NCBI GenBank assembly: GCA_030583845.1
Contig: CP129478.1
Coordinates: 1,930 to 65,929 of the forward strand
Direction: 5' to 3'
Length of the DNA stretch: 64,000 nucleotides
Source: Candidatus Dojkabacteria bacterium
GTDB lineage: Bacteria > Patescibacteriota > Dojkabacteria > SC72 > JAHDCA01
Positions 13,951 to 64,000 of this stretch are shown piece by piece (positions within the stretch are counted from its first letter, which is position 1; each line of letters begins with the position of its first letter). Under the pieces are notes generated by a model that saw only the letters and a program-made list of their open reading frames with translations, had not been told where the DNA came from and made no database searches. A program made the translations under genes and the position numbers.

Positions 13951-14080
13951 TTTTAGCCTGTGTATATGCAGGAATCAAGCTCGAGTTGGCAGCAAGTATT
14001 CGGTAGATGCTAGCAGTAATCTATATTATACTAAAATCAGACATGAATTCGTGTTCCTACATATTTTTCTCACTGCTCTA

Positions 14081-29854: not shown

Positions 29855-29899
29855 CTAGAAGCCAAACAGGGTAGTGATGCACAAGATAACAGTGCATTG

Positions 29900-30946
29900 C
29901 TACTCTGTTATCTCCACCCACCTTTCAAAAACAGCCTTTGACTGGCCTTTATATGTTCTCATCCCTGTAGAGTTAGCTAGCGGCATCTGGAGTGTAGCAC
30001 CATTCTCCCAATCTACCGGATCATTTAGGAAGAGCCAGTTTGCGAAATGGAGCCTACTGCTAGCTACTAGGAAGTTAAACCGATTTAGAAAATGCAGCTG
30101 CTCTTCCTCGCTACCTTCATAGCCAGTGCCGTTCAACGTCTCGAAAGCACCTTCAAATTGTGATTGGGAAGGCCAGCCAATCTCGCTGAAGGCAACAGGG
30201 AGATGTGAGTGCTCCGAGATGCGCGAATAGTAATCGTCCGGGATCTGATCTGGAGTCGGATAATCAAAAGATGGATAGCTAGTAAATACTGCGAGATCCA
30301 TATATCCATCAAGCTCTTGCAGCAGATACCAATCTTCTTCATATACATCTATTTTACCTGAGAGGTAGCTATTACCCAAGAAGGCCTCGTACTGAAACAC
30401 CGTAAAAAAAATCACATCAGGATAGGCTGTCTTTAGCTCTGTATATATCTCTTTATAGTACTCATAAAAACTGTCGCCGACGTCAGGATACTGATACTTG
30501 AACAGGTTTGTCTCATTGCCAATGCCGAAATACTTAATCTCGGGATATTTTTCGAGTAGCTGCAACGCCTTTGCAATATACTCATCTTGATCATTCTCCC
30601 ACTGGGCTGGATCTTGGAAACCTAAAACTACTACCAGATCCAGATCGCTATTCTGGATCGTTGCATCAACTATACTGGTTTCCTCCCAGTCAGTGTGCAC
30701 ACCATATATCTCTGCATACTGGTCGATATCTCTGTAGAACTGTCTAGCCTCTTCGGCGGTTGAATCTGGAAAATTGGTTGGAGTATATCCGGCAAAACCG
30801 TAATAGGGTATCTGCTCAGTTTCAACCTGTTCACTGCTGTCTTGCTGGCTGTCGTCATTGTCGTGTAGGCTAACTCTTGATATCGCGAAGCCGAGAGAGA
30901 GCATGACCACAAGCATTATAATTACCCCAATCAGGATGCTTTTCAT
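29900..30946 (-). CDS. Secreted glycoside hydrolase, clan GH-A TIM-barrel (GH5/GH26/GH113-like)
   Basis: Signal peptide; catalytic acid/base motif GIGNETN and nucleophile motif FSEIGWPS at the expected spacing. Confidence 0.6.
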   Translation of the reverse strand: MKSILIGVIIMLVVMLSLGFAISRVSLHDNDDSQQDSSEQVETEQIPYYGFAGYTPTNFPDSTAEEARQFYRDIDQYAEIYGVHTDWEETSIVDATIQNSDLDLVVVLGFQDPAQWENDQDEYIAKALQLLEKYPEIKYFGIGNETNLFKYQYPDVGDSFYEYYKEIYTELKTAYPDVIFFTVFQYEAFLGNSYLSGKIDVYEEDWYLLQELDGYMDLAVFTSYPSFDYPTPDQIPDDYYSRISEHSHLPVAFSEIGWPSQSQFEGAFETLNGTGYEGSEEEQLHFLNRFNFLVASSRLHFANWLFLNDPVDWENGATLQMPLANSTGMRTYKGQSKAVFERWVEITE

Positions 30947-31022
30947 AATTTATTAAACAAGAAATGTTTAGAAATTTCCAGAAATATCTAACTCTTTCAT
31001 CTGCAATCTTTTTTCAGTATAT

Positions 31023-50409: not shown

Positions 50410-51258
50410 CTACTTTGATGACCGTGCGACTGCGACTGTGAAAGCAGCTCTCGGATAGCGAATTTCATCACTTTTAGTCAGTCGATATGAGTATAGCTTG
50501 TCGTTTTGTGCCGATTCATAGGTGCAGATAGCAGTATCGTAGAAACTGCTGATCCCATACTTATCCCTCATCCTGTCCTTCACCCTTCTGACAAAATCAA
50601 ATCCTTTCTTCTCTTTATCTTCTACCTCCACACAATACTCTTCGATCCAATCTACGCTAGATGACATCTTCTCTATAAAATCTAACCCGTATTCATAATG
50701 CTGGGGACAGATATAAGGAAATATGTATACTTCCGCACGTGACATATTCTCAAGCGAAGCCCGGACAGAAAACAGATCCAGAACATCTTCATATATTCCA
50801 ACAAAAGCCTCCTTGGAGCCGACATGGATATACGCAAAGTGATCTGTGTCAGGATGAGCAATTACGATTATTGCGCAATCGGAAGGAGAAGTCATCACGC
50901 CTTGTCCGGTGAGCGATGTGAGAACGGCGTTAACGTTCAGCTCGTATAAGCCTATATCATCCTGCTGAGATTGACTGTTTCTTATAACTGCCTGAGACTC
51001 TTTGCCGAAGTGAATAAAGCCTGCTTCGAGAGGGCACTTCATTACAACAAATTCATCGGTGCCGACGAGGTTTGCTACCTTTGTACGCTTCTGTGCTATT
51101 AGTGGTTTTTCTTCCTCGTTCTTTGCAAGCTTCTCTGACATGTTTCCCCACTTACCATTATCATAGGTAGCAAGGTTGTTAATGCCGAACTGCTCTTTAA
51201 GTCTAGGAAAAAACAGAATACCGTTTTCAGAATCGAGCTCGTAATTTTGCTGCATCAA
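50410..51258 (-). CDS. YfiH/PgeF-like (DUF152, purine-nucleoside-phosphorylase/laccase-domain) protein, putative peptidoglycan editing factor; apparent TTG start
   Basis: SPSDCAIIVIA and AYIHVGSKEAFVGI resemble the T-x-DC..[IV] and A-x-H-x-GW-[RK] signature blocks of the family. Confidence 0.5.
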   Translation of the reverse strand: MMQQNYELDSENGILFFPRLKEQFGINNLATYDNGKWGNMSEKLAKNEEEKPLIAQKRTKVANLVGTDEFVVMKCPLEAGFIHFGKESQAVIRNSQSQQDDIGLYELNVNAVLTSLTGQGVMTSPSDCAIIVIAHPDTDHFAYIHVGSKEAFVGIYEDVLDLFSVRASLENMSRAEVYIFPYICPQHYEYGLDFIEKMSSSVDWIEEYCVEVEDKEKKGFDFVRRVKDRMRDKYGISSFYDTAICTYESAQNDKLYSYRLTKSDEIRYPRAAFTVAVARSSK

Positions 51259-51261: not shown

Positions 51262-51447
51262 TTACTTCTCTTCTTCGATTATCTCGACTTCAACTTTCTT
51301 AGTGCCGTTCTCATCCTGGCCAACAGATACAACTTCTAGCTCTGTACCACAGACAGAACACTCCAATATTTCACCTACTGAATACTCCTTATCCTCTAAT
51401 ACGATTTCGTTGCCACACTCTGGGCACACAATTTTTGTGTTATCCAT
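51262..51447 (-). CDS. LysW/ArgW-like zinc-ribbon amino-group carrier protein homolog with acidic C-tail (ends EVEIIEEEK)
   Basis: 61 aa; CPECGNEIVLED...GEILECSVCGTELEVV closely parallels the LysW core CPECGAEL.LE..ELGE...C..CGAELEVV. Confidence 0.55.
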   Translation of the reverse strand: MDNTKIVCPECGNEIVLEDKEYSVGEILECSVCGTELEVVSVGQDENGTKKVEVEIIEEEK

Positions 51448-51495
51448 ATTAAACTTTTTCGTTTTTATGTAAAATATTTCTACATTATATCACGC

Positions 51496-52452
51496 ATGAA
51501 GGTGACAATGTCCATTTGGAAATATGCTGAACAGTACAACCCGATAGTAGATATCGCTGCCAGGATTGAAAATAATGCCGGCAATACAGAGCTAACCCAG
51601 ATTGAAATAGATGGTCATGCTGTCTGGCTTAAGCGAGAAGACCAGAACCCAACAGGCTCACACAAAGACCGCTCACTTGCATTTCAGCTTTCAGCACACA
51701 TTGCCGATGGTAGGCAGGATTTCGTTATATCCTCTTCTGGGAATTCTGTAATCAGCGCTGCAAATATTGTAAAGCAATTGCCGAATATCAAGCTGAATAT
51801 TTTCCTTTCCCCAAAGCTTTCAGAGAGCAAGAAAGCAAGATTAGAAAAATACCTCGGATCTGAGATTGACATATCTAGCAAAGAGCCTCAGCTGATTGGG
51901 AACATAACTCTGCACTTCAGTAGGCGAGCGCTTTCCGACTCATTCCGCTTCGCCAAGGAGCATGAATATGTCCTACTACGCGGATCACAAGATCCATATG
52001 CAGTCGAAGGGTTCAAGAGTCTTGGATATGAGCTACTAGAACAGCTGCCAGATATCACAGATATCTTTATGGCCACATCGAGCGGGACCACACTCGTCGG
52101 AGTGGCAAAGTCTATGACAAATGTAAGAGTACACGCTTGCCAATCTAGCTCGATAAATCTTATTGCTAGCCATTTTGATAGAAATTTTGTGCCATCTGAG
52201 AGCTCAATTGCAGACAGCATAGTTGATAGGGTTGGTCATAGGAAAGATGAGGCAATCAGGGTAATTAATGAATCAGAGGGTAGCGGCTGGGTTATCTCTG
52301 ATGAAGAGATAAATAACTCGCTCGAGATGTTAAAGATAAACGGAGTAAACAGCTCGGCGGAGGGAGCACTCGCACTCGCAGCCTACCGTAAAGCCATAAA
52401 TTCCGGATGGGAAATTAGCAAGCCTGTATGTATAATTTCGGGTATAGCCTAA
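51496..52452 (+). CDS. PLP-dependent enzyme of the tryptophan-synthase-beta fold (threonine-synthase/cysteine-synthase-like)
   Basis: LKREDQNPTGSHKDR Lys-containing PLP motif (compare LNPTGSFKDR); Gly-rich loop SSGNS. Confidence 0.8.
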   Translation: MKVTMSIWKYAEQYNPIVDIAARIENNAGNTELTQIEIDGHAVWLKREDQNPTGSHKDRSLAFQLSAHIADGRQDFVISSSGNSVISAANIVKQLPNIKLNIFLSPKLSESKKARLEKYLGSEIDISSKEPQLIGNITLHFSRRALSDSFRFAKEHEYVLLRGSQDPYAVEGFKSLGYELLEQLPDITDIFMATSSGTTLVGVAKSMTNVRVHACQSSSINLIASHFDRNFVPSESSIADSIVDRVGHRKDEAIRVINESEGSGWVISDEEINNSLEMLKINGVNSSAEGALALAAYRKAINSGWEISKPVCIISGIA

Positions 52453-52458
52453 CTGTCT

Positions 52459-54678
52459 ATGAGCAATACCACTCCTACAATTTTCTATATCTGCAATGAC
52501 CCAGAGCGAGCATTAGGTCCTGAAGCCTTTATTGATAACTACCACATTGTATGTATCGACAATAGCCCCTTGCTACCCTTGCTTAAAGCCAAGGGGATCA
52601 AGTATTTCTCGTTGGGCGAGACTCTCGGTGACAGCAACACAATTTTCCGCAATTCCAATAAACTGCTCGCTCGCAAAGAGGTGCAAGAGTATATTGCTGC
52701 AAATTGTGGAGACCAGGCTTATGTCCAGTTTTTTAAAATCGCCCCAAATATTGAGCGAGAATCGGCTAAATTGGGGTATACAGTATTAAACAGCTCTTCT
52801 GTTCTCAACCGTAAGTTCGAAAATAAGCTCTCACAGTATGAATCACTTTCTGGGTCGGTCAAGAATTTTCCTCCGACTGTCATAACCAAACTGTTGGATG
52901 CAAGCTACCAAGATCTCAGTGATGAGCTTGGTGAAGAGATGGTCGTTCAGTTTGACCGAGGACATACTGGCTCTGGGACTCTCTTCATTAAAAGCGAGTC
53001 GCAATTTAATGAAGTTAAAGATGAATTCCCAAACAGGGTCGCACGCATTGCGAAAATGATTGAAGGCGAGGCATGGACTCTGAATGCATGCGTTACAAGA
53101 TTCGGCATAGCATATGGTGGTCTTTGTAAGCAGATAACTGGAATACCAGAGCTAACTTCAGAAGCTGGCGGAACAGTTGGCAATGATTGGACTCAGGTAT
53201 CAGGTCTGAGCCAAGAAATGCTGCAGCAGATTGGCGAGCTGACCGAGCGGGTAGGAGAGCTTATGGCAGCGGATGGATATAAAGGACTATTTGGACTTGA
53301 CCTAATTATTACACCAAACAACGAGCTATATCTTATTGAAATCAATGCGAGGCAGCCTGCCTCAACAGGCATGCACAGCAAACTAATGCTTCAGTCCGAG
53401 CAGATCCCGCTTATTGCTTTCCATATAGCTGAGTTTGCTTTCAAAGGAGATGAGCAATATTTAGCCTTTATTAATCAGACATTTAATAAGCAGTTTAATG
53501 AAGATAAAATTTCACACTTCATTAAATCCCAAAACCACACTTCTTTAAGTTCATTAAATGCCTCTCAGATTATCATTCGCAACAAGTCAGGAAAGGATCT
53601 TAAAATTAAAGATGCAATTCCAGCAGGAGAATATAACAGCAGCTTGGAAAAAGCAGGCGAGAACTATTCAATCTCTGAGATAGATCGAGCAAACTTTATT
53701 CTACTTCACACTGCTCAAGGGCAAGAAGTATCACCTGGCAGCGAGATTGCCCGTATCCAAGCTCCAGAAAGCGTGCTAGACGGTGACAACCTCAAGCTGC
53801 AATATGCTAAGATGGTTGAGCTGATAAATCAGAACAACGACAATATGAGCAGCGAGCATAGATCAGAGCAACAAACAGCTCCCAGCATTACTTCGCAGGC
53901 CGAAAATATCGTAACGAAAGAGCTCCCAACCGAAGTTCAGCAATATATTCGTAAATACTTCGAGCTGCCTATAAACGGCGTACTCGTAACTACTCCATAC
54001 TTTAGAAATGTTAAAAGAGTTCGTGCGGAGCTTCGCGTCCTTGTAGGGAAGGGAACTCCGGAAGAGCTTGTTGAGGAGACGCTTATATACGCTAAACTTC
54101 GAGGATTCGAGCTTCGAGGCAAGACAGCGGAAGAGATTAGAGAGTTTATGATGGAGCAGGGACTGGGTGTAGACTGCTCAGCATTTGTGGCACACACATA
54201 TAATTACTACATGCGAGTAACAGAAAGCGGCTCGCTTTGGGCGAAGGCAAAGTACCCAAACAAAGGCTTCTATCGAAACTTCATCCGCATGCTCCGACCC
54301 GTCGAGAATCTCGGAGCCGAAATCTTAACCAATCTGGAGAATTGCGACAAGATTGAACTCGCTCAAATTGAGCCTGGTGATCTTATCCGCATGAAAGGGC
54401 TAAAGGGCGGCGATCATCTCGCACTGGTATATGCTGTTCAGTATGACCAAAGCGACAGGCCAACAAAGTTTACTTATGTCCACTCGATTTCAAGGTATGG
54501 CAAAGCAAATGGCGTAAGATTTGGAGATGTCATAATCAACGATGCAAACGGTGAATTAAAAGACCAGGAATGGCTGGAAAAAGATGAGGATGGGATATGC
54601 TGGACATTGAAAGAGCTGAAAACAGAATATGAAGATAACGGACTCAGACGACCTAAATTCAAGCCCAATGCCCGATAA
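52459..54678 (+). CDS. Bifunctional-looking fusion: N-terminal ATP-grasp ligase domain plus C-terminal NlpC/P60 (papain-like) amidase domain
   Basis: ATP-grasp: EEMVVQFDRGHTGSGTLFI and GYKGLFGLDLIITPNNELYLIEINARQ. NlpC/P60: GVDCSAFVAHTY (Cys) and GDLIRMKGLKGGDHLALVY (His), then YVHSI. Confidence 0.7.
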   Translation: MSNTTPTIFYICNDPERALGPEAFIDNYHIVCIDNSPLLPLLKAKGIKYFSLGETLGDSNTIFRNSNKLLARKEVQEYIAANCGDQAYVQFFKIAPNIERESAKLGYTVLNSSSVLNRKFENKLSQYESLSGSVKNFPPTVITKLLDASYQDLSDELGEEMVVQFDRGHTGSGTLFIKSESQFNEVKDEFPNRVARIAKMIEGEAWTLNACVTRFGIAYGGLCKQITGIPELTSEAGGTVGNDWTQVSGLSQEMLQQIGELTERVGELMAADGYKGLFGLDLIITPNNELYLIEINARQPASTGMHSKLMLQSEQIPLIAFHIAEFAFKGDEQYLAFINQTFNKQFNEDKISHFIKSQNHTSLSSLNASQIIIRNKSGKDLKIKDAIPAGEYNSSLEKAGENYSISEIDRANFILLHTAQGQEVSPGSEIARIQAPESVLDGDNLKLQYAKMVELINQNNDNMSSEHRSEQQTAPSITSQAENIVTKELPTEVQQYIRKYFELPINGVLVTTPYFRNVKRVRAELRVLVGKGTPEELVEETLIYAKLRGFELRGKTAEEIREFMMEQGLGVDCSAFVAHTYNYYMRVTESGSLWAKAKYPNKGFYRNFIRMLRPVENLGAEILTNLENCDKIELAQIEPGDLIRMKGLKGGDHLALVYAVQYDQSDRPTKFTYVHSISRYGKANGVRFGDVIINDANGELKDQEWLEKDEDGICWTLKELKTEYEDNGLRRPKFKPNAR

Positions 54679-55796
54679 TGGAGTGGCCAGCATTCACAAA
54701 TGATGTAAGGACAACAATCTACTACATATTGGTCTCTTTCGTAGTATCGATGCTGTTAGCTCCGATATTGATCAAAGTGCTGTACAAGTATAACGTAGTC
54801 AGGAAGACAGATAAGGACTTTGCTTCGATCGTCGGTGACAGATTCCTCAAGGCTGGTACACCGATCATGGGTGGTACTCTTGTAGTTTTCACGACCACAA
54901 TATTGACGATTCTATTCAACTGGAACGGGAATACATATATCCCTATCGCTGTACTCCTTATATCAGCTCTATTGGGAGGTATGGACGATCTGCTAAATAT
55001 CTTCGGCAGGAAGAGAGTAGTGAGAACAATTAAGAAACAGGTGCTATTGGCCAGAGTACATAAGAGTCCACTCCACCGACTCTATCTGTGGCTAACTCTC
55101 CCTTGGATTGCATACAAAAATATCTGGTATGCTCTTGGCTCCTACCCAGGCTCGGGTATCCATGCAGGAGAGAAAATAATTGTGCAGCTCATGGCAGGGG
55201 CATTTGTGGCTTGGTGGATCTACTCCAAGCTAGGATGGGATACCGTATGGTTCCCATGGATTGGCACGGTAGAGCTGGGCTACCTGATGCCTATTTTTAT
55301 CATTTTCACAGTTGTCTCAATGACAAATGCTGTAAATATCTCAGACGGCATGGATGGGCTATCGTCGGGTTTGCTGATATTCTCATTCATTGCATATTTA
55401 ATAATCTCACTCATCCAGGGGAATTTTGAGATCGCTACACTTATAGCAGTTGCAGTTGGCTCGTTGATCGCATATCTCTACTTCAATATTAAGCCTGCCA
55501 GATTTGAGATGGGGGATGTAGGGACATTAGCCTTGGGGGCTATGCTGGCTACAGTTGCATTCGCACTGGACAGACCTATTCTGCTGCCAGTTATTGGCTT
55601 TATGTTTGTTGCTGAGATAGGCTCATCGCTGATTCAGGGTGTGTATAGGAGAATCTTCGGCAAGAGGCTGTGGAAAATGGCGCCTTTGCATCTACACTAC
55701 CAGATCAAGGGCTGGTCAGAAGAAAAAGTTGTCATGAGGTTTTGGCTGATGGCAGGATTGTTCGCTCTGGTCGGAGTTTGGCTTAGCTTGATGTAG
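54678..55796 (+). CDS. mraY: Phospho-N-acetylmuramoyl-pentapeptide transferase MraY
   Basis: NAVNISDGMDGL and APLHLHYQ (APLHHHF-type) motifs. Confidence 0.9.
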   Translation: MEWPAFTNDVRTTIYYILVSFVVSMLLAPILIKVLYKYNVVRKTDKDFASIVGDRFLKAGTPIMGGTLVVFTTTILTILFNWNGNTYIPIAVLLISALLGGMDDLLNIFGRKRVVRTIKKQVLLARVHKSPLHRLYLWLTLPWIAYKNIWYALGSYPGSGIHAGEKIIVQLMAGAFVAWWIYSKLGWDTVWFPWIGTVELGYLMPIFIIFTVVSMTNAVNISDGMDGLSSGLLIFSFIAYLIISLIQGNFEIATLIAVAVGSLIAYLYFNIKPARFEMGDVGTLALGAMLATVAFALDRPILLPVIGFMFVAEIGSSLIQGVYRRIFGKRLWKMAPLHLHYQIKGWSEEKVVMRFWLMAGLFALVGVWLSLM

Positions 55797-55797: not shown

Positions 55798-56823
55798 CTA
55801 GTAGCCGCGTCGCTTATTTTCCAGATTTTCATAAACCCTAGTGGCATGTGCGAAAGGGTAAACGATCATATCGTGGGCATGCACAGTCTGAACTTCACTC
55901 CCCCCAAACCCACGCTTAAACAGCGATAATCCATACCATGGATGCTCTTTCTGATTTTCGGGAGATACACCCCACAAGTTATGGATCCTCATGCCAGCAG
56001 ACTTGGCATACTTAATCGCTTCCCACTGTAGCAGGTATGTTGAAGGTACCTCACGAAACTGTGTGAGCGAGCCACTATGGTGGTATACAGAGTGGCCATT
56101 GAAATATATGAATATGGCAGCCGCGATCGGCTTATTCTCGTACAGTGTGAAAAACATACGAGCCATATTATCTTTCGCAAATAGCTCAAACTCTTTCTGG
56201 ATATAGTTGCGTGAGTAAGCAGTCCATTTATTTCTACTCACTGCATCCTGATAGATTTCCCAAAACTGTTCAAAATTCTCCATCCCTGTTGTGCTTACAA
56301 CTTTGATCCCCATTTTCTCAGCCTTCCTTATATAGTAGCGAGTATTTTTGCGCATCTCAGCGAGTAGCTGATCTTCACTTTTGGAAAGGTCGAGCACCAA
56401 TGTATTCTCGGCATCGACAGCATGTGCCGTGGCTGGGATAAGTTTGCACTCTTTCAATAGATCATTGTGTAATGGGGTATTAGAAAGCAGCGGGCTTATG
56501 CGGACAAACTGCCAAGCCCCTTTCACAGCCATCTTCTTTAGAAATTTCAATACGGCTGCAACAAGCTCTCTGTTCTCCCAATCTATCAATGGGGCATGCC
56601 TCAGGTGAAGATAGCGACCACGCAAGGCCTTTACATGTTTTATCGGGAGTAGACCGACTATTGAATCGTTACTGTCATATACAGCATAGTTATCGAAAAC
56701 AGCCCCAAGTGATTTTTCAAATTCACCATAGTTCCACGACAGGACAAATGTTGCATTATCAAATCTTGATGCAACTTCATCCCACTTCTCCTTATCATTT
56801 AGCTTCTTAATGCTATACATCAT
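55798..56823 (-). CDS. FemABX-family aminoacyl-tRNA-dependent peptidoglycan peptidyltransferase
   Basis: VYHHSGS, YLLQWEAIKYAK, LFKRGFGG family motifs. Confidence 0.8.
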   Translation of the reverse strand: MMYSIKKLNDKEKWDEVASRFDNATFVLSWNYGEFEKSLGAVFDNYAVYDSNDSIVGLLPIKHVKALRGRYLHLRHAPLIDWENRELVAAVLKFLKKMAVKGAWQFVRISPLLSNTPLHNDLLKECKLIPATAHAVDAENTLVLDLSKSEDQLLAEMRKNTRYYIRKAEKMGIKVVSTTGMENFEQFWEIYQDAVSRNKWTAYSRNYIQKEFELFAKDNMARMFFTLYENKPIAAAIFIYFNGHSVYHHSGSLTQFREVPSTYLLQWEAIKYAKSAGMRIHNLWGVSPENQKEHPWYGLSLFKRGFGGSEVQTVHAHDMIVYPFAHATRVYENLENKRRGY

Positions 56824-56865: not shown

Positions 56866-58125
56866 CTATTTAGCTTCAACGCCGTAATACTCCTCGATCT
56901 TATCAACTATATAATTCGCATCTTCAACTGAAGTATTAATATGTGTCGGTAAATTTATTATCCGGTCACACACTGCCTCGCCACTCGGGCATTCACCACT
57001 CTTGTAGCCTACTGCCTTCGGATTTGCTTCCTTTGGAGAGATTGGATCTGAATACCAGTCGCCAAGATAGATATGGTGGTCGCTCAAAAATGCCAACAGA
57101 TGCTCTTTCCTATATGCAAGAGCCGGGAACCTCAAAGGCGCAGCATTTTCATCTATGCTGAAGCTTTCGACATACTTATTACCTTTTAGCCGTGATTTGT
57201 AAACTTTAGCTATGCTGTCACGATGATAATTGAGTGCTTCAAGGTCAAGTAGCTGTAGGTATGCAAGCTTAGCCAACGCGTTGGGTAAAAGCCGCGGCAC
57301 CGAAGAGGGTAGTGTACCCGATTTCTCCTCAGGTGTAGTTGCTCGGGTCACCAGACCTAATGTCATAGATATTTTATGAAATAGCTTGGCAACCTTGGGC
57401 GAATACTTGTAGAAGAACTTAAACTTGCTCCAAAATATAGGGAAATTTAGCTCCTTCCATACCCACCATCTAGTCGGATGCTCAAGGTCCATGTAGAGAG
57501 CATCAACTTCATCTAGGTAATCGTTATTATTTAACACCAGGACTCCGCCATCAACACCGGAAATCGCCTTATCCCGCCCGAAGCTGAAAACAGCAGCATC
57601 ACCATATGTACCGATTAGTTTACCTCGATGCTTTGTCAGTAATGTATGGGTACAGTCTTCAAGCAGAACAATATTGTGCTTCTTAGCAAGCTTCGCAACA
57701 GCTTCTATCTCTCCTTGAACCCCCAATGTATGCTGATACACAATAACTTTTGTTTTTTCTGTAATCTTCTCAGCCAGACTTGCAACTGAGAATGCCAAAG
57801 TCTCAGGAGAAATATCGGCATATACAGGCTTGAAGCCCGCCCACACAGCTGGATTAACGGCTGCTATGCAGGTGAATCCTTGAAAAATTACCTGATCGCC
57901 ACGCTTCGGTTTTAACGCCTTAAAGAATTGATACATGGCGGATCTGGCGTAATTGTACACAAAGTACTCCCGATCATCACCATACTTCTCTGCAAACCAC
58001 TGCTCAACCAAGTAAGGGTATCCACCCTTCTTCCATTTCCATGGTTGGAAATAGATTTTCAGATTGGCGTGCATATCCTTCCTGCGTGTACTTGGGGAAT
58101 AGGATGTGTATATCAGCCTGTTCAT
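56866..58125 (-). CDS. DegT/DnrJ/EryC1/StrS-family PLP-dependent sugar aminotransferase
   Basis: GDQVIFQGFTCIAAVNP and FSFGRDKAISGVDGG (PLP Lys) motifs. Confidence 0.85.
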   Translation of the reverse strand: MNRLIYTSYSPSTRRKDMHANLKIYFQPWKWKKGGYPYLVEQWFAEKYGDDREYFVYNYARSAMYQFFKALKPKRGDQVIFQGFTCIAAVNPAVWAGFKPVYADISPETLAFSVASLAEKITEKTKVIVYQHTLGVQGEIEAVAKLAKKHNIVLLEDCTHTLLTKHRGKLIGTYGDAAVFSFGRDKAISGVDGGVLVLNNNDYLDEVDALYMDLEHPTRWWVWKELNFPIFWSKFKFFYKYSPKVAKLFHKISMTLGLVTRATTPEEKSGTLPSSVPRLLPNALAKLAYLQLLDLEALNYHRDSIAKVYKSRLKGNKYVESFSIDENAAPLRFPALAYRKEHLLAFLSDHHIYLGDWYSDPISPKEANPKAVGYKSGECPSGEAVCDRIINLPTHINTSVEDANYIVDKIEEYYGVEAK

Positions 58126-58889
58126 CTATTTTGACGGATGAAGTTATCGATCTCAATGAAGATGTTCTCTGGCTGGCTTATTGGCAGGCTATGGCCAACC
58201 CCTTGATAGATTTTGATCTTTGATCCTGAAATTTTTTCATTTATCATTACAGCCTCTTCGACTGGTGTGTACCTATCTTGGTCGCCCCACAAGATCAGTG
58301 TGGGCTTATTAATTTTCTCCAGTCGGTCAGTGAGATCCTGGGTAATAATCTTGCGATAGCTCTCCTCAAGCTTAGGATTTTTCAATGTATCGGAAAGTGG
58401 ATAGAAAATCTTGTAGTACAGCTTTCTAAGTGGGCGAGCCTTCTCTTTATACTGTTCATAGTTCGGTACTACTTTCTTGATAGTTGAGCTGGCTTTGCTC
58501 TCTTTTGGTGAGCGCCTAATTGCCGCCGCACAGAGGATAAGATTTTTGATAAGATCGGGCGACTCTGCTGAAATATATGCACCAAGCCCACCGCCAAATG
58601 AGTGTCCGAAATAGATTACCTCATGCAACCCGAGCGCGACAATAAATTTCCTCAAGAAAAGCGCATATTCTTCAACCCCCCATGTAGTAGTAGGCGCATC
58701 GGAGTTGCCAAACCCAGGTAGGTCGAGCAGGTAAGCTTTGTAGCGATACTTTGAAGCAGTTGAAAAAAGCCCCCTAAGACTTTCTACGCTCCCTCCCCAA
58801 CCATGAACAAACAGAATTGGGACTTGGGAACCAACAGCTCCCTCTGACTCTAGGTAATTGATTTTCAGGCCATCTACATCTATCTTCAT
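58122..58889 (-). CDS. Alpha/beta-fold hydrolase
   Basis: HGWGGS oxyanion region, GHSFGG nucleophile elbow; 4-bp overlap with upstream degT-like gene. Confidence 0.75.
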   Translation of the reverse strand: MKIDVDGLKINYLESEGAVGSQVPILFVHGWGGSVESLRGLFSTASKYRYKAYLLDLPGFGNSDAPTTTWGVEEYALFLRKFIVALGLHEVIYFGHSFGGGLGAYISAESPDLIKNLILCAAAIRRSPKESKASSTIKKVVPNYEQYKEKARPLRKLYYKIFYPLSDTLKNPKLEESYRKIITQDLTDRLEKINKPTLILWGDQDRYTPVEEAVMINEKISGSKIKIYQGVGHSLPISQPENIFIEIDNFIRQNR

Positions 58890-59038: not shown

Positions 59039-60310
59039 ATGAGCAAGTTACTCCCACAAAACCTGAAGAACAAAAAGCACCTCCTGACCTCGAAGTTTTA
59101 CCATAACTTCTATGGCAAGCCTTCAAAGCAGCTTAAAATAATCGGCGTCACTGGCACCGATGGTAAGACGACTACGAGCACTATTTTATATGAAATGTTG
59201 AAGCTGGCTGGCTACAAAGTTGGCCTTATCTCAACGATCAGCGCCAAGATAGGCAGCAAGGAGTATTCGACAGGATTTCATGTTACCTCGCCTAGTCCGA
59301 AAGATTTGCAAAAATTTCTGAAGGAGATGGTGAAAGAGGGATTGGAGTATGTGGTGTTGGAGACCACCTCACACGGATTGGATCAGTATAGAGTAGGGGG
59401 AGTACAGTATTGTGCTGCTGTTTTTACAAATGTAAGCCACGAGCATCTGGACTACCACAAAACATACGACAACTACCTCCAGACCAAGGCCCGGCTTATG
59501 GAGCTACTAGATAAAGATGGTTTTGCGGTGATAAATAAAGATGACCAGTCGTATGAGAAATTTGTCTCCAAGGCCAAAGCTCTCGGAATTGACATGATCG
59601 ATTACGGCTTTAGCGATGGAAGCGATATGAAGGGCGATAACCTACAACAGAATGGCAGGATGTCATTTAGAGCGACACTTCACTCGACAGATCAGAATAT
59701 TGAGCTAAATTTCGACACCAATCTTCAAGGGAAATATAACGCGCAGAATATCATGGCTGCAGCTGTTGCAGCATATGAGCTGGGAGCCGAGGTAGAAGCA
59801 ATCGAAAAAGCCGTGCACAATGTAAAAAGCCTTAAAGGCCGATGGGAAGTGTTGCAAGAGCACCCTTTCAAAGCGGTAGTTGATTTCGCACATACTCCAA
59901 ATGCACTGGAGAATGTGCTTTCATTTGCTCGCGCTGACAACAGAGAAGGGAAGCTAATCGTGGTATTCGGAAGCGCTGGACTACGCGATGTAACCAAAAG
60001 GCCATTGATGGGTGAGGCTGCCGGGAAGCATGCAGACTACACCATCCTAACCGCCGAGGATCCACGTGGAGAAAGTGTTACCTCTATTTCAAATATGATC
60101 GCAGAGGGTATTAAAAAGCATTCCGGGAAGTATGAAATAATCGAGGACAGGAAAGAGGCAATAGCCGCTGCCATAAAGATGGCAAAGAAAGGAGATACGG
60201 TGGTAGTCACAGGCAAAGGGCACGAAGAGAGCCTCAATCTAGATGGCAAAAGCGAAATTCCGTGGAGTGACCAGAAGGTGATGGGGGAGCTATTAAATTC
60301 TAAAAAGTAA
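59039..60310 (+). CDS. murE: Mur ligase family protein (MurE-like) lacking the canonical N-terminal domain
   Basis: IGVTGTDGKTTTS P-loop only 38 aa from the start; in-frame TAG 6 nt upstream of the ATG; C-terminal Mur-ligase domain present. Confidence 0.75.
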   Translation: MSKLLPQNLKNKKHLLTSKFYHNFYGKPSKQLKIIGVTGTDGKTTTSTILYEMLKLAGYKVGLISTISAKIGSKEYSTGFHVTSPSPKDLQKFLKEMVKEGLEYVVLETTSHGLDQYRVGGVQYCAAVFTNVSHEHLDYHKTYDNYLQTKARLMELLDKDGFAVINKDDQSYEKFVSKAKALGIDMIDYGFSDGSDMKGDNLQQNGRMSFRATLHSTDQNIELNFDTNLQGKYNAQNIMAAAVAAYELGAEVEAIEKAVHNVKSLKGRWEVLQEHPFKAVVDFAHTPNALENVLSFARADNREGKLIVVFGSAGLRDVTKRPLMGEAAGKHADYTILTAEDPRGESVTSISNMIAEGIKKHSGKYEIIEDRKEAIAAAIKMAKKGDTVVVTGKGHEESLNLDGKSEIPWSDQKVMGELLNSKK

Positions 60311-60313
60311 CGT

Positions 60314-61003
60314 ATGAGACTTCATTTCAAAGAGACTAAAAACGCTGATTATCAAAACTACGAGTTCCCGTATAAAGTGTATGCGACTCGAGAAGATAGC
60401 GATAGCGTGGAATCTATGTACGAGCAAGGCTTCCTTCAGACAAGGATTGAGAAAGAGTACTATTACTTAGCGCGTGGTGTAAGAATCAAGCTTGAAGATT
60501 TCGAGTTAAATAGTGAGAATCGCCGCATCTTGAGGAAGACCGAATATATGGAGATGGCAATCGCCAGCCTAAGAGATTTTGAATACGACCACACGATTGG
60601 GAAGTTCGCTAAAGATTATTACGATAGTCGTTTTGGTCCAAAGACTTTATCGCCTCAGAAGATGAAGTGGATTTTCACATCGGGTGCTTTTACCGATGTG
60701 CTTATCTTCCGTGACAAGAGCAATGGAGAGATCATCGGATATTGCCCGGTACTGATGACCAACGAGATTATGCACTACGCTTACCCGTTCTTCCAGCTAA
60801 GCTACATGGAGAAGAATCTTGGCATCGGCATGATGACAGCCGCTATCCAATATGCCCAGGAGAAAGGGTTGAAATATGTATACCTCGGCACATGCTACAG
60901 TGAGCAGGCATTATATAAGACACAGTTTGATGGCGTTCAGTGGTTTGACGGGGAGACATGGAGTGATGATCTTGAACAGCTAAAGCAGCTTTGCAGAAAT
61001 TAA
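60314..61003 (+). CDS. ATE/Bpt-family (arginyl-/leucyl-tRNA--protein transferase C-domain-like) protein, divergent, without N-terminal Cys motif
   Basis: HYAYPFFQLSYMEKNLGIG and YVYLGTCYSEQALYKTQF...W align with the Bpt blocks FYTFFEPE..LSLGT and WLYLGYQIDECPAMNYKVRF...W. 229 aa, close to Bpt length. Confidence 0.5.
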   Translation: MRLHFKETKNADYQNYEFPYKVYATREDSDSVESMYEQGFLQTRIEKEYYYLARGVRIKLEDFELNSENRRILRKTEYMEMAIASLRDFEYDHTIGKFAKDYYDSRFGPKTLSPQKMKWIFTSGAFTDVLIFRDKSNGEIIGYCPVLMTNEIMHYAYPFFQLSYMEKNLGIGMMTAAIQYAQEKGLKYVYLGTCYSEQALYKTQFDGVQWFDGETWSDDLEQLKQLCRN

Positions 61004-61020
61004 GTTAACGAAATTAGATA

Positions 61021-62457
61021 ATGAAGTCACAGCATATACATTTCATCGGAATCGCAGGATCGGCAATTGCTCCAGTAGCAATCTTGATGAAAAGCCTTGG
61101 GCATAAAGTGACCGGATCAGATGAAGCGGTATATGAGCCAGCCAGAACTCTCTTGAGCGAAGCTGGAGTAGAGTGGAGCGAGGGGTATGATGCAGAGAGA
61201 ATTAAGCCAGCAGACCTAGTGATACTTGGTGGTGCACCACTTATGGTTGATATCAACAACCCTGAGTTTCTTGCGGCCAAGGAGCTCGGCAAACAGCTTG
61301 AAGGATATGCATACCTGCTCAAACAGTATGTTGTAAAAGATGAGTCGATTGTTGTGACTGGGACATATGGCAAGACCACAACCTCGGCACTTGTAAATTG
61401 GATATTAGATGTAGCTGGTGAGAACCCTTCATTTATGATTGGTGGTAAGCCGCAAAATTTCGAAAATGGCGTGAGGATGACAGATTCAAAATACTCTTGC
61501 CTGGAAGGTGATGAGTATCTTGCGGTCTTTCACTTCGACGAGGAGCCACGCTTCCTCAGATATGCACCGAAATATGCGATCTTATCGGCAGCCAAGTGGG
61601 ACCATATAAATGTATATCCAACCGAGGATTCATATGTGGATGCCTTCAAGAAACTGCCTGCTGAGGTGAACAAGAATGGTGGCAAAATGTATGTGTGTGC
61701 CTCAGGCGAGAACAACGCCAAGGCAGTTGCTGAGTATGATGGTGAGCTCATTCTTTATATGCTCGAAGGGAGAGACTCATCGCAGTTCGAGGGACGAGAT
61801 GTGAACTACCTCGCTAAAGAGATCAGGACTGAGGGTGGCAAGACCCTTTTTACTGTTGAACTTAATGGAGGGATTATAGGAGATTTTGAGACAGAGCTGA
61901 TAGGAGATTTCAATGTTGAGAACTGCCTCGCTGCTATCACAATTACCCATGACCTTGGTATCGATATTGCAAAGATCAAAGAGGCAATTTCTACTTTTAA
62001 GGGCATAATGCGAAGGCTTGAGCTGAAGGGCTATACAAGTCGTGGCTCTTCCGTTATTGACGATTTCGCACACTCTGCGGTGAAAGCAAAAGCCACTCTC
62101 GACACGCTTCGAGTAACTTATCCGGACCGCAAGCTTATCTGCATCTACTACCCAAGACCATCAGAGCGCGAGGATAAGAATGTGCTTAGCTGGTACGAGG
62201 GAGCATTTGACTCTGCGGACCTGATGATACTCCCAAGAATCTTCGTCAAGAAATCTACCGAGAAAGAGCAGAGGATCTATGGGAAAGATTATATTGAGGT
62301 AATAAGCAAGACACAGCCTAATGCGCATTATGTGCCAAGGAACGAAGATATCGTGAAGCTGATAAAAGAGAATGAAGAGGACGAAAGTATCATTGTATTC
62401 ATGAGTGCCGGTGGCTGGGGAGACTTAATGGAGAGTTTGATAGACAAGAAGGCGTAA
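61021..62457 (+). CDS. murC: MurC/Mpl-family UDP-N-acetylmuramate--amino acid/peptide ligase
   Basis: HFIGIAGSAIAPVAILMKSLGHKVTGSDEAVYEP...VTGTYGKTTTSALV; layout especially Mpl-like. Confidence 0.85.
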   Translation: MKSQHIHFIGIAGSAIAPVAILMKSLGHKVTGSDEAVYEPARTLLSEAGVEWSEGYDAERIKPADLVILGGAPLMVDINNPEFLAAKELGKQLEGYAYLLKQYVVKDESIVVTGTYGKTTTSALVNWILDVAGENPSFMIGGKPQNFENGVRMTDSKYSCLEGDEYLAVFHFDEEPRFLRYAPKYAILSAAKWDHINVYPTEDSYVDAFKKLPAEVNKNGGKMYVCASGENNAKAVAEYDGELILYMLEGRDSSQFEGRDVNYLAKEIRTEGGKTLFTVELNGGIIGDFETELIGDFNVENCLAAITITHDLGIDIAKIKEAISTFKGIMRRLELKGYTSRGSSVIDDFAHSAVKAKATLDTLRVTYPDRKLICIYYPRPSEREDKNVLSWYEGAFDSADLMILPRIFVKKSTEKEQRIYGKDYIEVISKTQPNAHYVPRNEDIVKLIKENEEDESIIVFMSAGGWGDLMESLIDKKA

Positions 62458-62459: not shown

Positions 62460-63545
62460 TTACACAATCTCAACCTCTGAGCGGAGCTCAATATCGTAAG
62501 CTTTCTTAACGCTCTCTTTCATCTGCATTGCAAAGTCATATATCTCTTTGCCTGTTGCCTCTTTGTTCGTGACTATCACTAATGAATGTTCCTTAAAAGT
62601 GCCAACATTACCAACCCATTTCCCCTTCCAACCCTGTTCCTCTAACAACCGGCCAGCAGGGATTTTCACTATCTCATCATCTCCTGTATCTTTCCAGTCG
62701 TGCCTGCCATAATCCATCTTGGTTGTCGGATACTGCTGAAGCTCGTTTATCTTCTCAGAGAGCTCATGAAACTTGCTTACAGGGACAAATGGATTCGTGA
62801 AAAAACTGCCGCAAGTCCCATATTCAGAAAGAAGGGGGAGCTTAAATTGTCTCAGCTTTGTAACTGCGGTAGCCACATCTTTTGGAGTGTATGGCCGCTC
62901 AGCTGTTTCCTCAAGCCATTTCTCGAGTGACTCGTTCGGCTTCCTTGAGTGATAGCTAGTATCGAAGTGCGCCTCTTTGCTCAATCTCATACGAACCTTA
63001 GTGACAATATACTTATCACGCAAGCTTCCCTTGAAAGCACTCGACCGGTATGCGAAGTCACACTGCTCAGCAGTGAATGTCTCTACACCTCCAGTTTTGC
63101 GGTTTACGACCTCCACGCTGACACAGATCTGGTCAAAGCTTTGACCATACGCAGCGATATTCTGTACAGGAGCTGCACCAACTGTTCCTGGGATGTAGGC
63201 CATATTCTCTACGCCGCTCCAGCCCTGCTCGACAGCCCACATCACAAATTCAGGCCAATCTTCACCCGCACCGATATCTACGATAACCTCATTACTATCT
63301 TGGCTTGCCACCTCTTTGCCCATTAGCTCAACCTTCAGCACCAAACCGTCAAAATCCTGCGTGAAAAGTGTGTTACTACCCCGGCCTAATATGAACCATT
63401 TCTGGCTCTTTAGCTCATCAATCGTTAAGAGTTCTTGAATATCCTCGACACTCTCTACCTTAGCGAAATATTTAGCGCTGACATCAACCGCGAATGTGTT
63501 GTACTCCTTTAGAGGGATGTTCTTCTCAAGCTTCATAGTCGGCAA
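62460..63545 (-). CDS. murB: UDP-N-acetylenolpyruvoylglucosamine reductase MurB (FAD-binding), complete
   Basis: N-terminal FAD-binding PCMH motifs (ILGRGSNTLF) and C-terminal MurB domain (GTCGSFFTNP). Confidence 0.85.
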   Translation of the reverse strand: MPTMKLEKNIPLKEYNTFAVDVSAKYFAKVESVEDIQELLTIDELKSQKWFILGRGSNTLFTQDFDGLVLKVELMGKEVASQDSNEVIVDIGAGEDWPEFVMWAVEQGWSGVENMAYIPGTVGAAPVQNIAAYGQSFDQICVSVEVVNRKTGGVETFTAEQCDFAYRSSAFKGSLRDKYIVTKVRMRLSKEAHFDTSYHSRKPNESLEKWLEETAERPYTPKDVATAVTKLRQFKLPLLSEYGTCGSFFTNPFVPVSKFHELSEKINELQQYPTTKMDYGRHDWKDTGDDEIVKIPAGRLLEEQGWKGKWVGNVGTFKEHSLVIVTNKEATGKEIYDFAMQMKESVKKAYDIELRSEVEIV

Positions 63546-63571: not shown

Positions 63572-64000
63572 CTACTTGCCGTATATGGAAACTCCAGTAT
63601 CCAAGGTGATCCCAAATTTCTTCTCAACATTTTCTGCGATCTTCTTTGCGAAAGAGTAGACATCTTTTCCGCTTGCTTTACCGTAATTAACTACAATCGC
63701 AGGTGATTTAGCATAGATACCTACGTCTCCACTCCTCTCATTATCAAGCCCTGCCAACCTTATCAGCTGGCTTGCTGGCACCTGGATTTCGCCATTCTGC
63801 TCATTTAGTGCTTTCAACTCATACTTTTTCGCAAGCTTGTCATATAGCTCCTTTGGGATATATGGGCTCATAAAGAAGAAGCCAGAGGTTCCGATCTTGC
63901 CTAGCTCTGGGAACTCGTCATCGTAAATTCGCTTAATAATATTCGGGATATCTTGGAGTGTAGGATTCTTATAACCCATCTCTTCAGCTTTCTCTTTCAA
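63572..64000 (-). CDS. Second MurB-like gene, 3' portion only (N-terminus lies beyond the window edge)
   Basis: GTSGFFFMSPY...GLDNERSGDVGIYAKSPAIVVNYGKASGKDV..FGITLDTGVSIYG matches the MurB C-terminal domain. Confidence 0.7.
   Translation of the reverse strand: MKEKAEEMGYKNPTLQDIPNIIKRIYDDEFPELGKIGTSGFFFMSPYIPKELYDKLAKKYELKALNEQNGEIQVPASQLIRLAGLDNERSGDVGIYAKSPAIVVNYGKASGKDVYSFAKKIAENVEKKFGITLDTGVSIYGK

Follow-up and report, generated by a model that had tools for sequence, protein, structure and literature searches.

A lysine-ended LysW homologue and its enzyme partners: a candidate carrier-protein module in peptidoglycan precursor synthesis

The locus and its neighbours

The window, that is, the whole 64-kb stretch of Candidatus Dojkabacteria DNA analysed here, contains all three of the open reading frames that had been singled out in an earlier reading of the sequence alone (the sequence-only reading). 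A minus-strand gene at 51262..51447 encodes a protein of 61 residues with a four-cysteine zinc ribbon and the LysW fold, which is our proposed carrier protein. It is divided by an AT-rich region of 48 bp (51448..51495), presumably a shared promoter region and one in which a promoter consensus scan scored no higher than chance, from a divergent plus-strand gene at 51496..52452 for a threonine synthase (ThrC)-like, fold-type-II PLP enzyme of 318 residues, referred to below as PALP (one gene caller predicts an alternative start at 51508). On the same strand, a gene at 52459-54678 encodes a 739-residue ligase-peptidase fusion, in which an ATP-grasp ligase domain (residues 1-461; 52459..53841) is joined by a low-confidence linker (residues 462-484; 53842..53910) to an NlpC/P60 (papain-like) cysteine peptidase domain (residues 485-739; 53911..54678).

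The stop codon of the fusion gene is overlapped by the start of mraY (54678..55796, plus strand; TIGR00445, 168.9 bits). The surroundings are those described previously, with MurG, ClpC and a PgeF-like gene upstream and MraY, FemAB, DegT, MurE, an ATE_C-like gene, a MurC-like gene and MurB downstream, and the suggested link with peptidoglycan precursor synthesis is a strong one, the module lying within cell-wall clusters. MurE (59039-60310), the ATE_C-like putative aminoacyl-tRNA transferase (60314-61003) and the MurC/Mpl-like ligase (61021-62457) make up a plus-strand block (59039..62457) of genes that frequently accompany the module in CPR clusters. Neither MurD nor MurF was found among the annotated large open reading frames of the 64-kb window.

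The small protein and its three partner enzymes

The 61-residue protein is a genuine homologue of LysW rather than a generic zinc ribbon. It scores 45.6 bits against the Pfam model Zn_ribbon_LysW (PF21344; gathering score 27), in keeping with a four-Cys LysW-type ribbon, and its closest solved structures are those of LysW (3wwl, E 9e-6; 5k2m, E 1.7e-5). The profile support expected by the sequence-only reading was nonetheless partial, as both LysW equivalog models reject the protein (TIGR01206 lysW, 37.8 bits with a cut-off of 53.2; NF041070 LysW/ArgW, 33.3 bits with a cut-off of 75); these models align to the ribbon alone (residues 5-52). The tail is acidic (...VEIIEEEK) and its last residue, Lys61, is invariant in the family, so that the protein ends in IIEEEK and not in the canonical EDWGE with its terminal Glu. 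A tail motif [IVL][IVL][ED]E[EG]K, with Lys last, is present in 51/51 orthologues, and among 105 complete LysW-like neighbours of the module 98 end in K and three in KG, while the residues before the terminal Lys vary (EEEK, DEGK, TTYK, VLHK). Since three tails end in EEKG, the conserved element is the Lys side chain and not the terminal carboxylate. The same search supplied a control: DWGE-ended LysW proteins form a group separate from the Lys-ended ones and adjoin LysX (RimK+LysX_preATP_grasp) and homoisocitrate dehydrogenase (Iso_dh), and thus the tail type tracks the gene context. The 61-residue protein defines a sister subfamily of LysW, here named LysW-K. In the Dojkabacteria forms there may be little tail after the ribbon, a point against the carrier role proposed below. 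A passing remark in the sequence-only reading, that the EEEK ending could mean a different charging chemistry, has turned out to be the key point.

The 318-residue enzyme matches the Pfam PALP family (E 2e-36), and its landmarks are a Schiff-base Lys, K57 (GSHKDRS), a substrate loop SSSGN (79-83) and a PLP-phosphate loop SSG (195-197). K57, S80, N83, S195 and S196 are invariant in the family, as is appropriate for fold-type II, and the retained SSGN loop is common to racemases and CysK. Of the named families, ‘threonine synthase’ models score highest, all of them far below their cut-offs (the best, NF006205, gives 91.8 bits against 358, and TIGR00260 gives 40.7 against 167), and in profile comparison with the PDB the ThrC structure 2zsj (4e-28) is followed by serine dehydratases and serine/aspartate racemases (~1e-16). 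At the position aligned with NSxNPxRxEGQK, which we take from ThrC structures to be the phosphate-binding motif of ThrC, the protein reads LRGSQDPYAVEGFK and the family consensus is LRGSxDDxAxxGYK; Arg is replaced by Ala or Gly and Asn by Gly, and the phosphate-binding Arg and Asn have therefore been lost. The enzyme, called threonine-synthase-like in the sequence-only reading, is not a threonine synthase. Members of the PALP family outside the module adjoin glutamine-synthetase-like and GCS2 ligases, two families that both make γ-glutamyl amides.

These features bear on two conventional explanations, ordinary LysW-dependent lysine or arginine biosynthesis and the derivation of the small gene from the zinc-ribbon domain of an archaeal-type threonine synthase, which we consider to have next to no likelihood. 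The first agrees with the public annotation of the small protein by NCBI and JGI (‘lysine biosynthesis protein LysW’), but both LysW equivalog models fail, and a search of the 64-kb window and of the conserved neighbour families revealed no LysX, LysZ, LysY, LysJ, LysK or AAA-pathway genes; the full pathway is thus missing from the window and from the surroundings of relatives, an absence that the sequence-only reading had named in advance as support for a role other than lysine synthesis. Lysine biosynthesis via LysW is refuted by this context, true DWGE-ended LysW proteins being those that adjoin LysX and Iso_dh. For a split-off domain one may cite the ThrC profiles PRK08197 and PRK05638, which reach ~45-55 residues N-terminal of the start of the PALP alignment. 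However, the small protein has a conserved free C-terminal tail and is encoded on the opposite strand, the PLP enzyme lacks the ThrC phosphate site, and a profile search of 1.84 billion proteins yielded no ThrC-sized protein with an N-terminal match.

The ligase domain belongs to the ATP-grasp superfamily by its fold, its Mg/ATP-binding E-x-N (E294-x-N296-x-R298) and its conserved Lys and Arg. It had been likened to LysX/ArgX, but neither the RimK family model nor the LysX pre-ATP-grasp domain matches it, which places it outside the RimK/LysX clade; the fold is instead PylC-like or L-amino-acid-ligase-like, and the top structural match is PylC, at a sequence identity of 13%. PylC acylates the ε-amine of Lys. 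The assignment of the C-terminal domain to the NlpC/P60 (C40) peptidases has been upheld, with a papain-like fold and a Cys-His-polar triad consisting of Cys573, His653 and, probably, His675, and its best matches are γ-D-Glu-diamino-acid endopeptidases. It does not have the make-up of a secreted cell-wall hydrolase (signal peptide, wall-binding domains): in the window it follows a cytoplasmic ligase in the same polypeptide, and homologues that stand alone start with M-x-x-x-[IL]P... and have no hydrophobic leader. Lacking a signal peptide, the peptidase is therefore cytoplasmic. Linker residues 462-474 have a pLDDT below 50. In most relatives this point is marked by a stop codon and, after a short gap, by a new start codon, and in 73 of 80 loci the ligase and peptidase are encoded by two neighbouring genes. 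Assembly error does not account for the fusion, since the identical 739-residue protein occurs on four independent contigs and there are further fusions 61-63% identical. Catalytic residues are retained in all three enzymes of the module.

If an acidic ...EEK tail were the target of both an ATP-grasp enzyme and a papain-like peptidase, this would mirror TTL and vasohibin on ...EEY, and the ligase-amidase fusion mirrors glutathionylspermidine synthetase/amidase, which is among the matches of the NlpC/P60 domain. We nevertheless think it very unlikely that the peptidase removes the C-terminal Lys for the ligase to restore it, or that LysW-K is a protein tag ligated to targets and removed by the peptidase.

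Conservation and the association with murD

When the ATP-grasp gene is taken as the anchor and at least 9 kb of flanking sequence is required on either side, 31 genome loci are available; the NlpC/P60 gene is present in all 31 and LysW-like and PALP genes in 28 each. With PALP as the anchor and at least 4 kb on either side there are 26 metagenome loci, of which 24 contain a LysW-like gene, 24 an ATP-grasp gene and 23 an NlpC/P60 gene. This association is far beyond chance, and the co-occurrence of the trio in relatives, whose absence the sequence-only reading would have counted as a refutation, extends over many lineages (28/31 genome and 24/26 metagenome loci). At least several hundred species-level CPR genomes carry the module, as do unrelated high-GC bacteria; the well-flanked loci are spread over CPR classes and high-GC bacteria, with GC contents from 27 to 76%. 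Gene order is shuffled between loci while the gene set is retained: three loci (L015, L018, L022) have the LysW-K gene immediately 5' of the ATP-grasp gene and two (L084, L088) have it immediately 5' of PALP, and the divergent LysW-K/PALP arrangement is kept in 49/50 pairs. The most constant neighbour from outside the module is MraY, within 9 kb in 28 of the 31 well-flanked genome loci.

The tightest partner of LysW-K is PALP, and its distance from the ligase-peptidase pair can reach 4-8 kb; LysW-K could therefore serve the PLP enzyme only. This leads to an alternative with two independent pairs, in which LysW-K would associate non-covalently with the PLP enzyme as a regulator or scaffold, its tail plugging the active site as in CysE-CysK, and the ATP-grasp and NlpC/P60 enzymes would act directly on stem peptides. 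The latter pair might recover or rework muropeptides that the cell has imported, cutting the γ-D-Glu-diamino-acid bond as YkfC does and then religating, or it might attach a branch amino acid to Lys3 in the manner of a D-aspartate ligase. Consistent with such a division, the genes for LysW-K and PALP lie side by side in divergent orientation in nearly every pair, the ATP-grasp and NlpC/P60 genes are always adjacent and can be separated from them by MraY, ATE_C and MurC, and neither LysW-K nor PALP lies within 9 kb in 3/31 fully flanked ATP-grasp loci. The peptidase is similar to enzymes of recycling and to endopeptidases, CPR bacteria, being auxotrophs, would gain from salvage, and fold-type-II PLP enzymes are known to bind the C-termini of partners, as CysK does that of CysE. 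On the other hand, the four genes stay together in distant lineages despite their differing order, including tight operons outside dcw clusters, and some genomes encode LysW-K on the same strand as the ATP-grasp ligase and immediately upstream of it. The EEKG variants retain Lys but not the terminal carboxylate needed by a CysE-like plug, and other LysW homologues are known only as covalent carriers. We regard this alternative as unlikely, though less so than the other rivals of the carrier cycle.

A second association is with murD. Genes for MurD that pass TIGR01087 immediately adjoin the LysW-K gene in five loci (L088, L090, L096, L100, L146), and MurD lies within 3 kb in 9/9 well-flanked high-GC loci; the genes flanking L088 are not cell-wall genes, so that this copy of the module is outside a dcw cluster. 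Eight Paceibacteria-type loci have a MurD-like gene in convergent orientation to PALP, and in 10 CPR dcw clusters with MurE, MurC, MurF and MraY the module occupies the murD slot. The order MurE-ATE_C-MurC recurs in 10 metagenome loci, with MurD in none of them, and MurD is adjacent in just 5 of 55 low-GC loci; clustering of dcw genes could by itself account for part of the adjacency. One contig (L143) carries MurD-PALP-FtsW with no gene for LysW-K or the ATP-grasp ligase. The recurrent partnership with MurD, which the sequence-only reading had missed, points to position 2 of the stem peptide (D-Glu) rather than to the cross-bridge or the position-3 residue.

A proposed carrier cycle and its relation to known systems

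The sequence-only reading had envisaged an amino-group carrier of the LysW/LysX type, in which the substrate is attached by its α-amino group to a carboxyl in the tail of the carrier, either on a Glu side chain or at the C-terminus, then modified, and released as an unusual amino acid for the stem peptide or cross-bridge. The LysW fold and acidic tail are in line with this, as are Glu at position -3 in 48/51 CPR orthologues, an acidic residue at -4 in 51/51, and the presence of an ATP-grasp ligase and a releasing hydrolase comparable to LysX and LysK. However, a tether through the α-amine would block the PLP enzyme, whose substrate must have a free α-amine; acidic residues in the tail are not universal (TTYK, VLHK, VVDK, QTSK), whereas Lys is; the ligase is not of the LysX clade; and no LysZ/Y/J-type kinase, reductase or aminotransferase was found in the window or among the conserved neighbours. 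As the canonical C-terminal Glu, the site of attachment, is replaced by an invariant Lys, we consider this mechanism improbable. The opposite polarity, with the carboxyl of the substrate on the ε-amine of Lys, is a better fit.

We propose, with a probability of roughly 0.45, that the four components form a carrier-protein-dependent module in cytoplasmic peptidoglycan precursor synthesis, in a cycle of which we infer every step. On our best reading the functional group of LysW-K would be the ε-amino group of the conserved C-terminal Lys, on a flexible acidic tail, and not a Glu γ-carboxyl. The PylC-like ATP-grasp ligase would activate a carboxyl group of a free amino acid and amidate this amine, leaving a free α-amino acid head; the ThrC-like PLP enzyme, without the ThrC phosphate pocket, would take the head as an external aldimine and convert it; and the cytoplasmic NlpC/P60 peptidase would cut the isopeptide bond, freeing the product and regenerating the carrier. 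In favour of this cycle are the four-gene co-occurrence in reshuffled order, the fusion in the window, the invariant Lys, the tail-context control and the retained catalytic residues, together with PylC as top match of the ligase, the γ-D-Glu peptidase matches, the lost ThrC Arg and Asn, the MurD link, and the γ-glutamyl-amide-forming ligases beside PALP members outside the module.

The chemistry we favour is one in which L-Glu would be tethered via its γ-carboxyl and racemised at Cα by the PLP enzyme, ATP supplying directionality, and D-Glu would be set free by a γ-D-glutamyl-specific peptidase and pass to MurD for position 2 of the stem peptide. This choice of substrate is tentative and clearly less probable than the cycle in general. 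To our knowledge there is no fold-type-II PLP glutamate racemase. Making D-Glu with four genes would also be costly beside MurI, an activity that one member of the CPR, Saccharimonas, is reported to have (Penalver 2024, as cited in PMC11974145). More speculative again is the full proposition that a reverse-polarity LysW-K bearing γ-tethered Glu, a ThrC-derived racemase and release of D-Glu make up an ATP-driven pathway that replaces MurI, and possibly part of the MurD step in lineages with the module in the murD slot, across much of the CPR and in some high-GC bacteria.

We found no description of the LysW-K module in the literature. Peptidoglycan precursor synthesis is among the best-charted bacterial pathways and a major antibiotic target, and a conserved four-protein module of this kind would, if correctly interpreted, be an unrecognised step or supply route within it. 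The LysW carrier concept, at present one of amino groups protected on a terminal Glu, would come to include tethering to a terminal Lys; PLP enzymes of the threonine-synthase lineage would gain a new function, and NlpC/P60 peptidases a cytoplasmic biosynthetic role. The public names ‘lysine biosynthesis protein LysW’, ‘threonine synthase’ and ‘biotin carboxylase’ for proteins of the module are misleading and make CPR genomes look better equipped for amino-acid biosynthesis than they are. The carrier hypothesis concerns four small soluble proteins and is directly testable.

Among known systems, the nearest is that of LysW/ArgW (LysW-LysX-LysZ-LysY-LysJ-LysK in Thermus, Sulfolobus and Thermococcus; AmCP in Streptomyces), with which LysW-K has in common a homologous zinc-ribbon domain, an acidic flexible tail, a ligase of the ATP-grasp class and a hydrolase encoded nearby and, in high-GC members, the linker ...ELEVISLDP...; the logic, an amino acid built on a small protein, would be the same. 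The two differ in the tail (...EDWGE versus a final Lys), the ligase (with a LysX pre-ATP-grasp domain versus PylC-like or L-amino-acid-ligase-like without one), the modifying enzymes (kinase, reductase and aminotransferase versus a fold-type-II PLP enzyme), the releasing enzyme (M20 metallopeptidase versus NlpC/P60 cysteine peptidase) and the context (lysine/arginine genes versus murD and mraY). PylC, the ATP-grasp enzyme of pyrrolysine biosynthesis, acts on free L-lysine, whereas the module ligase would act on a protein tail, and its companions PylB and PylD do not accompany LysW-K. In glutathionylspermidine synthetase/amidase (Gsp), to be compared along with trypanothione synthetase, the amidase is N-terminal, the reverse of the 739-residue fusion, and the substrates are small molecules, with neither carrier protein nor PLP enzyme. 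The CysO-CysM-Mec and CysE-CysK systems offer a precedent for a small partner protein whose C-terminal tail either is worked on by a fold-type-II PLP enzyme or plugs it, and in the CysO system a peptidase afterwards frees the amino acid, as proposed here for NlpC/P60; CysO differs in its ubiquitin-like fold, its thiocarboxylate Gly-Gly end, its activation by an E1-like adenylase and its product, cysteine. Finally, MurI and the alternative D-Glu route MurD2/MurL of Xanthomonas (reviewed in PMC8788868) supply D-Glu to position 2 of the stem peptide, the role we would assign to the module. MurD2/MurL also has in common with the proposed cycle the epimerisation of a tethered glutamate and a genetic link to murD, but its tether is UDP-MurNAc-L-Ala and its epimerase is not PLP-dependent, whereas the module would use a protein Lys and PLP.

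A lysine-ended carrier-like protein and its conserved partners

The three ORFs picked out by an earlier sequence-only reading, for a LysW-like carrier, a threonine-synthase-like PLP enzyme and a 739-aa ATP-grasp/NlpC/P60 fusion, were found exactly where and as it stated. Their host, Candidatus Dojkabacteria bacterium, belongs to the Candidate Phyla Radiation (CPR). The assignment of the 61-aa protein (51262–51447, minus strand) to LysW stands in part: it passes PF21344, the Pfam LysW zinc ribbon (45.6 bits, gathering score 27), but fails both curated LysW models. Its closest solved structures are the LysW proteins of Thermus and Thermococcus (E values 9e-6 and 1.7e-5), and NCBI and JGI label it ‘lysine biosynthesis protein LysW’. 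A role in lysine or arginine biosynthesis was nevertheless rejected, as no LysX, LysZ, LysY or LysJ homologues were found in the window and its M20 enzyme is dipeptidase-like and distant. The M20 family takes in LysK, ArgE and DapE; this member (26624–27940) has dipeptidase models as its best matches (PRK08201, 316 bits, under the cut-off); 24 kb separate it from the LysW-like gene, and the two are not conserved together. Lysine biosynthesis is effectively excluded, as is a split ThrC zinc ribbon.

Scanning genomes with an alignment of the ATP-grasp ligase gave 80 loci from Patescibacteria, and scanning metagenomes with one of the PLP enzyme (PALP) gave 80 more; six-frame ORFs were annotated against HMMs made from the window proteins and their orthologues. 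Among the 31 genome loci with at least 9 kb on each side of the ligase, all 31 hold NlpC/P60, 28 hold the LysW-like gene, and the count is again 28 for PALP and for MraY. For the 26 metagenome loci with at least 4 kb on each side of PALP, the counts are 24 (LysW-like), 24 (ATP-grasp) and 23 (NlpC/P60). Conservation of the trio across relatives is therefore borne out in both collections (28/31 and 24/26). Lineages reshuffle the gene order yet retain the whole set: in 49 of 50 pairs PALP and the LysW-like gene are adjacent and point away from each other; at three loci (L015, L018 and L022) the small gene immediately precedes the ATP-grasp gene in the same orientation. The small gene is most tightly tied to PALP and may sit several kilobases from the ligase–peptidase pair; one contig (L143) reads MurD-PALP-FtsW, with neither the small gene nor the ligase gene. 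NlpC/P60 is nearly always a gene of its own, directly 3′ of the ligase; a minority of loci have it fused as in the window. The fusion is not an assembly artefact, since the identical protein occurs on four independent contigs and there are orthologous fusions of 61–63% identity.

In the window the set is preceded by MurG, ClpC and a PgeF-like gene and followed by MraY, FemAB, DegT, MurE, an ATE_C-like gene, a MurC/Mpl-like gene and two MurB genes. PgeF, ClpC, FemAB and DegT were discarded as members because none of them occurs in more than 7 of the 80 related loci. The PgeF/YfiH-like gene (50410–51258) adjoins the set only in the window and in locus L005; in its product the alignment to the family model starts at residue 106 (48.9 bits, cut-off 141), after an N-terminal extension of about 105 residues without any match. 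A scan of the locus for promoters and terminators gave signals no higher than chance.

The tail of the small protein and the three enzymes

All 51 orthologues from genome loci end in the motif [IVL][IVL][ED]E[EG]K. When 1.84 billion representative proteins were searched exhaustively with a profile, 182 matched, and the best 150 of these include 119 small proteins, of which 80 end in lysine (EEEK, DEGK and xEEK, also TTYK, VLHK and VVDK) and 11 in the canonical DWGE. Both CxxC motifs are present in 105 of the 113 distinct sequences encoded beside the other genes of the set; 98 of the 105 end in K, three in EEKG, and the remainder are contig-cut or aberrant-looking. Since the other tail positions vary among the Lys-ended sequences, lysine is the sole invariant residue, and the KG variants indicate that the feature under conservation is its side chain rather than the terminal carboxylate. 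Comparison of canonical LysW with the high-GC Lys-ended members (...ELEVISLDPLTFEVYEQEEK) makes the homology plain through the linker too. As a control, two DWGE-ended matches from the same search adjoin LysX (RimK plus LysX_preATP_grasp); the neighbours of one include homoisocitrate dehydrogenase as well. Because tail type tracks gene context, we place the Lys-ended proteins in a subfamily of their own, sister to LysW, and name it LysW-K.

The 318-aa protein belongs to the fold-type-II PLP enzymes (PALP, E value 2e-36). Its top models read ‘threonine synthase’, but it falls far under every cut-off (at best 91.8 against 358). The profile of its family finds ThrC first (2zsj, 4e-28), followed by serine dehydratases and serine/aspartate racemases (about 1e-16). 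No variation is seen in the Schiff-base lysine, the SSGN loop or the PLP-phosphate loop. The ThrC motif NSxNPxRxEGQK aligns with LRGSxDDxAxxGYK in this family, which lacks both the Asn and the Arg that in ThrC structures bind the substrate phosphate. By its sequence the protein is predicted to be an active PLP enzyme and not a threonine synthase, the latter being rejected on the scores and the lost phosphate site.

The ATP-grasp ligase gives no match to the RimK family model and lacks the LysX pre-ATP-grasp domain. The earlier proposal, a LysX-style amino-group tether on the small protein, is improbable, since such a tether would block the amine that PLP requires and the acidic tail residues are not universal. 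The NlpC/P60 peptidase probably works inside the cell, because it has no leader peptide and in the window is fused to a cytoplasmic enzyme.

MurD and the cell-wall cluster

We regard the gene contexts of Lys-ended relatives outside Dojkabacteria as decisive for a link to MurD. In a genome of 64% GC (locus L088) the operon runs NlpC/P60-MurD-LysW-K-PALP-ATP-grasp, with genes that overlap or follow one another closely, and its flanks are aconitase and an aromatic-amino-acid lyase, not cell-wall genes. The same order recurs in nine of nine well-flanked high-GC loci, and with 223–265 bits the neighbouring ligase exceeds the cut-off of 212 for the MurD equivalog (TIGR01087) in L088, L090, L096, L100 and L146. 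PALP is convergent with a MurD-like gene in eight Paceibacteria-type loci; in low-GC loci MurD adjacency is rare (5/55). Many CPR cell-wall (dcw) clusters read MurE-ATE_C-MurC-MurB-...-MurF-MraY-[NlpC/P60, LysW-K, PALP, ATP-grasp]-FtsW-MurG, where the set occupies the usual place of murD. MurD is absent from all ten loci that hold MurC, MurE, MurF and MraY, a count that covers the locus only. Among the annotated large ORFs of the window neither MurD nor MurF was found, and MurE and a MurC-like ligase are present. A motif scan for MurI over about 1.3 Mb of related loci found none, which is weak evidence of absence, since murI does not usually lie in dcw clusters. One CPR bacterium, Saccharimonas, is reported to have MurI activity (Penalver et al. 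2024, as cited in PMC11974145).

Other genes of the cluster have features of their own. MurE (59039–60310) passes the DAP-type equivalog (406 bits, cut-off 373), notable in a host expected to be without DAP synthesis; it aligns only from profile position 67/88 onwards and so seems to lack the N-terminal UDP-binding domain. The 229-aa ATE_C-like protein (60314–61003) resembles the C-terminal domain of arginyl-tRNA-protein transferase, with every arginyltransferase model under its cut-off; with MurE on one side and the MurC-like ligase on the other, its gene is a conserved member of CPR cell-wall clusters (26–27 of 80 related loci), and it may be an aminoacyl-tRNA-dependent transferase acting on peptidoglycan precursors besides FemAB (55798–56823). 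The MurC-family ligase (61021–62457) falls under both MurC (250 against 335) and Mpl (227 against 389), and its substrate may be L-Ala or a preformed peptide. Tandem MurB (UDP-N-acetylmuramate dehydrogenase) paralogues follow on the minus strand (62460–63545 and 63572–64000, the second continuing past the window end), a pair also present in L001. A DegT-type sugar aminotransferase and an α/β hydrolase (56866–58889), kept with the cluster in L005–L009, suggest that the wall polymer contains a modified sugar.

Elsewhere in the window, a 557-aa PGA_cap (CapA-like) protein (36376–38049) weakly matches MslH, the lasso-peptide C-terminal Trp epimerase (58 bits, far under the cut-off), and could be a further enzyme acting on peptide C-termini or poly-γ-glutamate. 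Large predicted surface proteins (693–2192, 8352–10241 and 13892–17386) carry FG-GAP repeats, a DUF5122 β-propeller and, in one of 1164 aa, CarboxypepD_reg and SdrD B-like domains; three ORFs of 348–478 aa (28556–32459) have no family match. Such proteins and ORFs are typical of CPR genomes.

A possible carrier cycle on LysW-K

Five considerations lead to a model in which an amino acid is processed on the carrier: the PLP enzyme requires an α-amine that is free; the lysine ε-amine is the only invariant group of the tail; the nearest fold to the ligase acylates lysine ε-amines; the peptidase family typically cleaves γ-D-glutamyl-diamino-acid bonds; and a D-Glu-adding ligase is encoded alongside as consumer. 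ATP-grasp would join the γ-carboxyl of L-Glu to Lys61 of LysW-K, the ThrC-like enzyme would racemise the free α-centre of the tethered glutamate, and NlpC/P60 would hydrolyse the γ-D-Glu adduct alone, regenerating the carrier and releasing D-Glu to MurD. In the second step the γ-amide would sit where homoserine phosphate would in ThrC, which would account for the remodelled pocket. We infer this cycle as the simplest that uses all the parts. To a general carrier cycle on LysW-K we give a probability of roughly 45%; D-glutamate chemistry specifically is doubtful.

A hint of γ-glutamyl chemistry comes from PALP-family members outside the set, one beside a glutamine-synthetase-like gene (L097, 398–3166) and one beside a GCS2 carboxylate-amine ligase, a GNAT and a circularly permuted ATP-grasp (L098, 8527–12789). 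The glutamine-synthetase-like and GCS2 families form γ-glutamyl amides, and these neighbourhoods, one case each and suggestive, may represent further γ-glutamyl-linked pathways. The main rival to the carrier cycle, in which the tail acts non-covalently, as that of CysE does in CysK, and the ligase and peptidase separately salvage or branch the stem peptide, we consider unlikely. A cycle of terminal-lysine removal and re-addition, or a protein tag, would leave PALP and MurD unexplained and is just barely possible.

The literature searches turned up no paper that ties LysW-like proteins to CPR, MurD, D-glutamate, ATP-grasp or NlpC/P60, and the set goes unmentioned in a survey of protein families enriched in CPR. 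Neither the carrier fold nor the principle of assembling amino acids on a carrier is new; the novelty lies in the Lys-ended tail, the accompanying enzymes and the peptidoglycan context.
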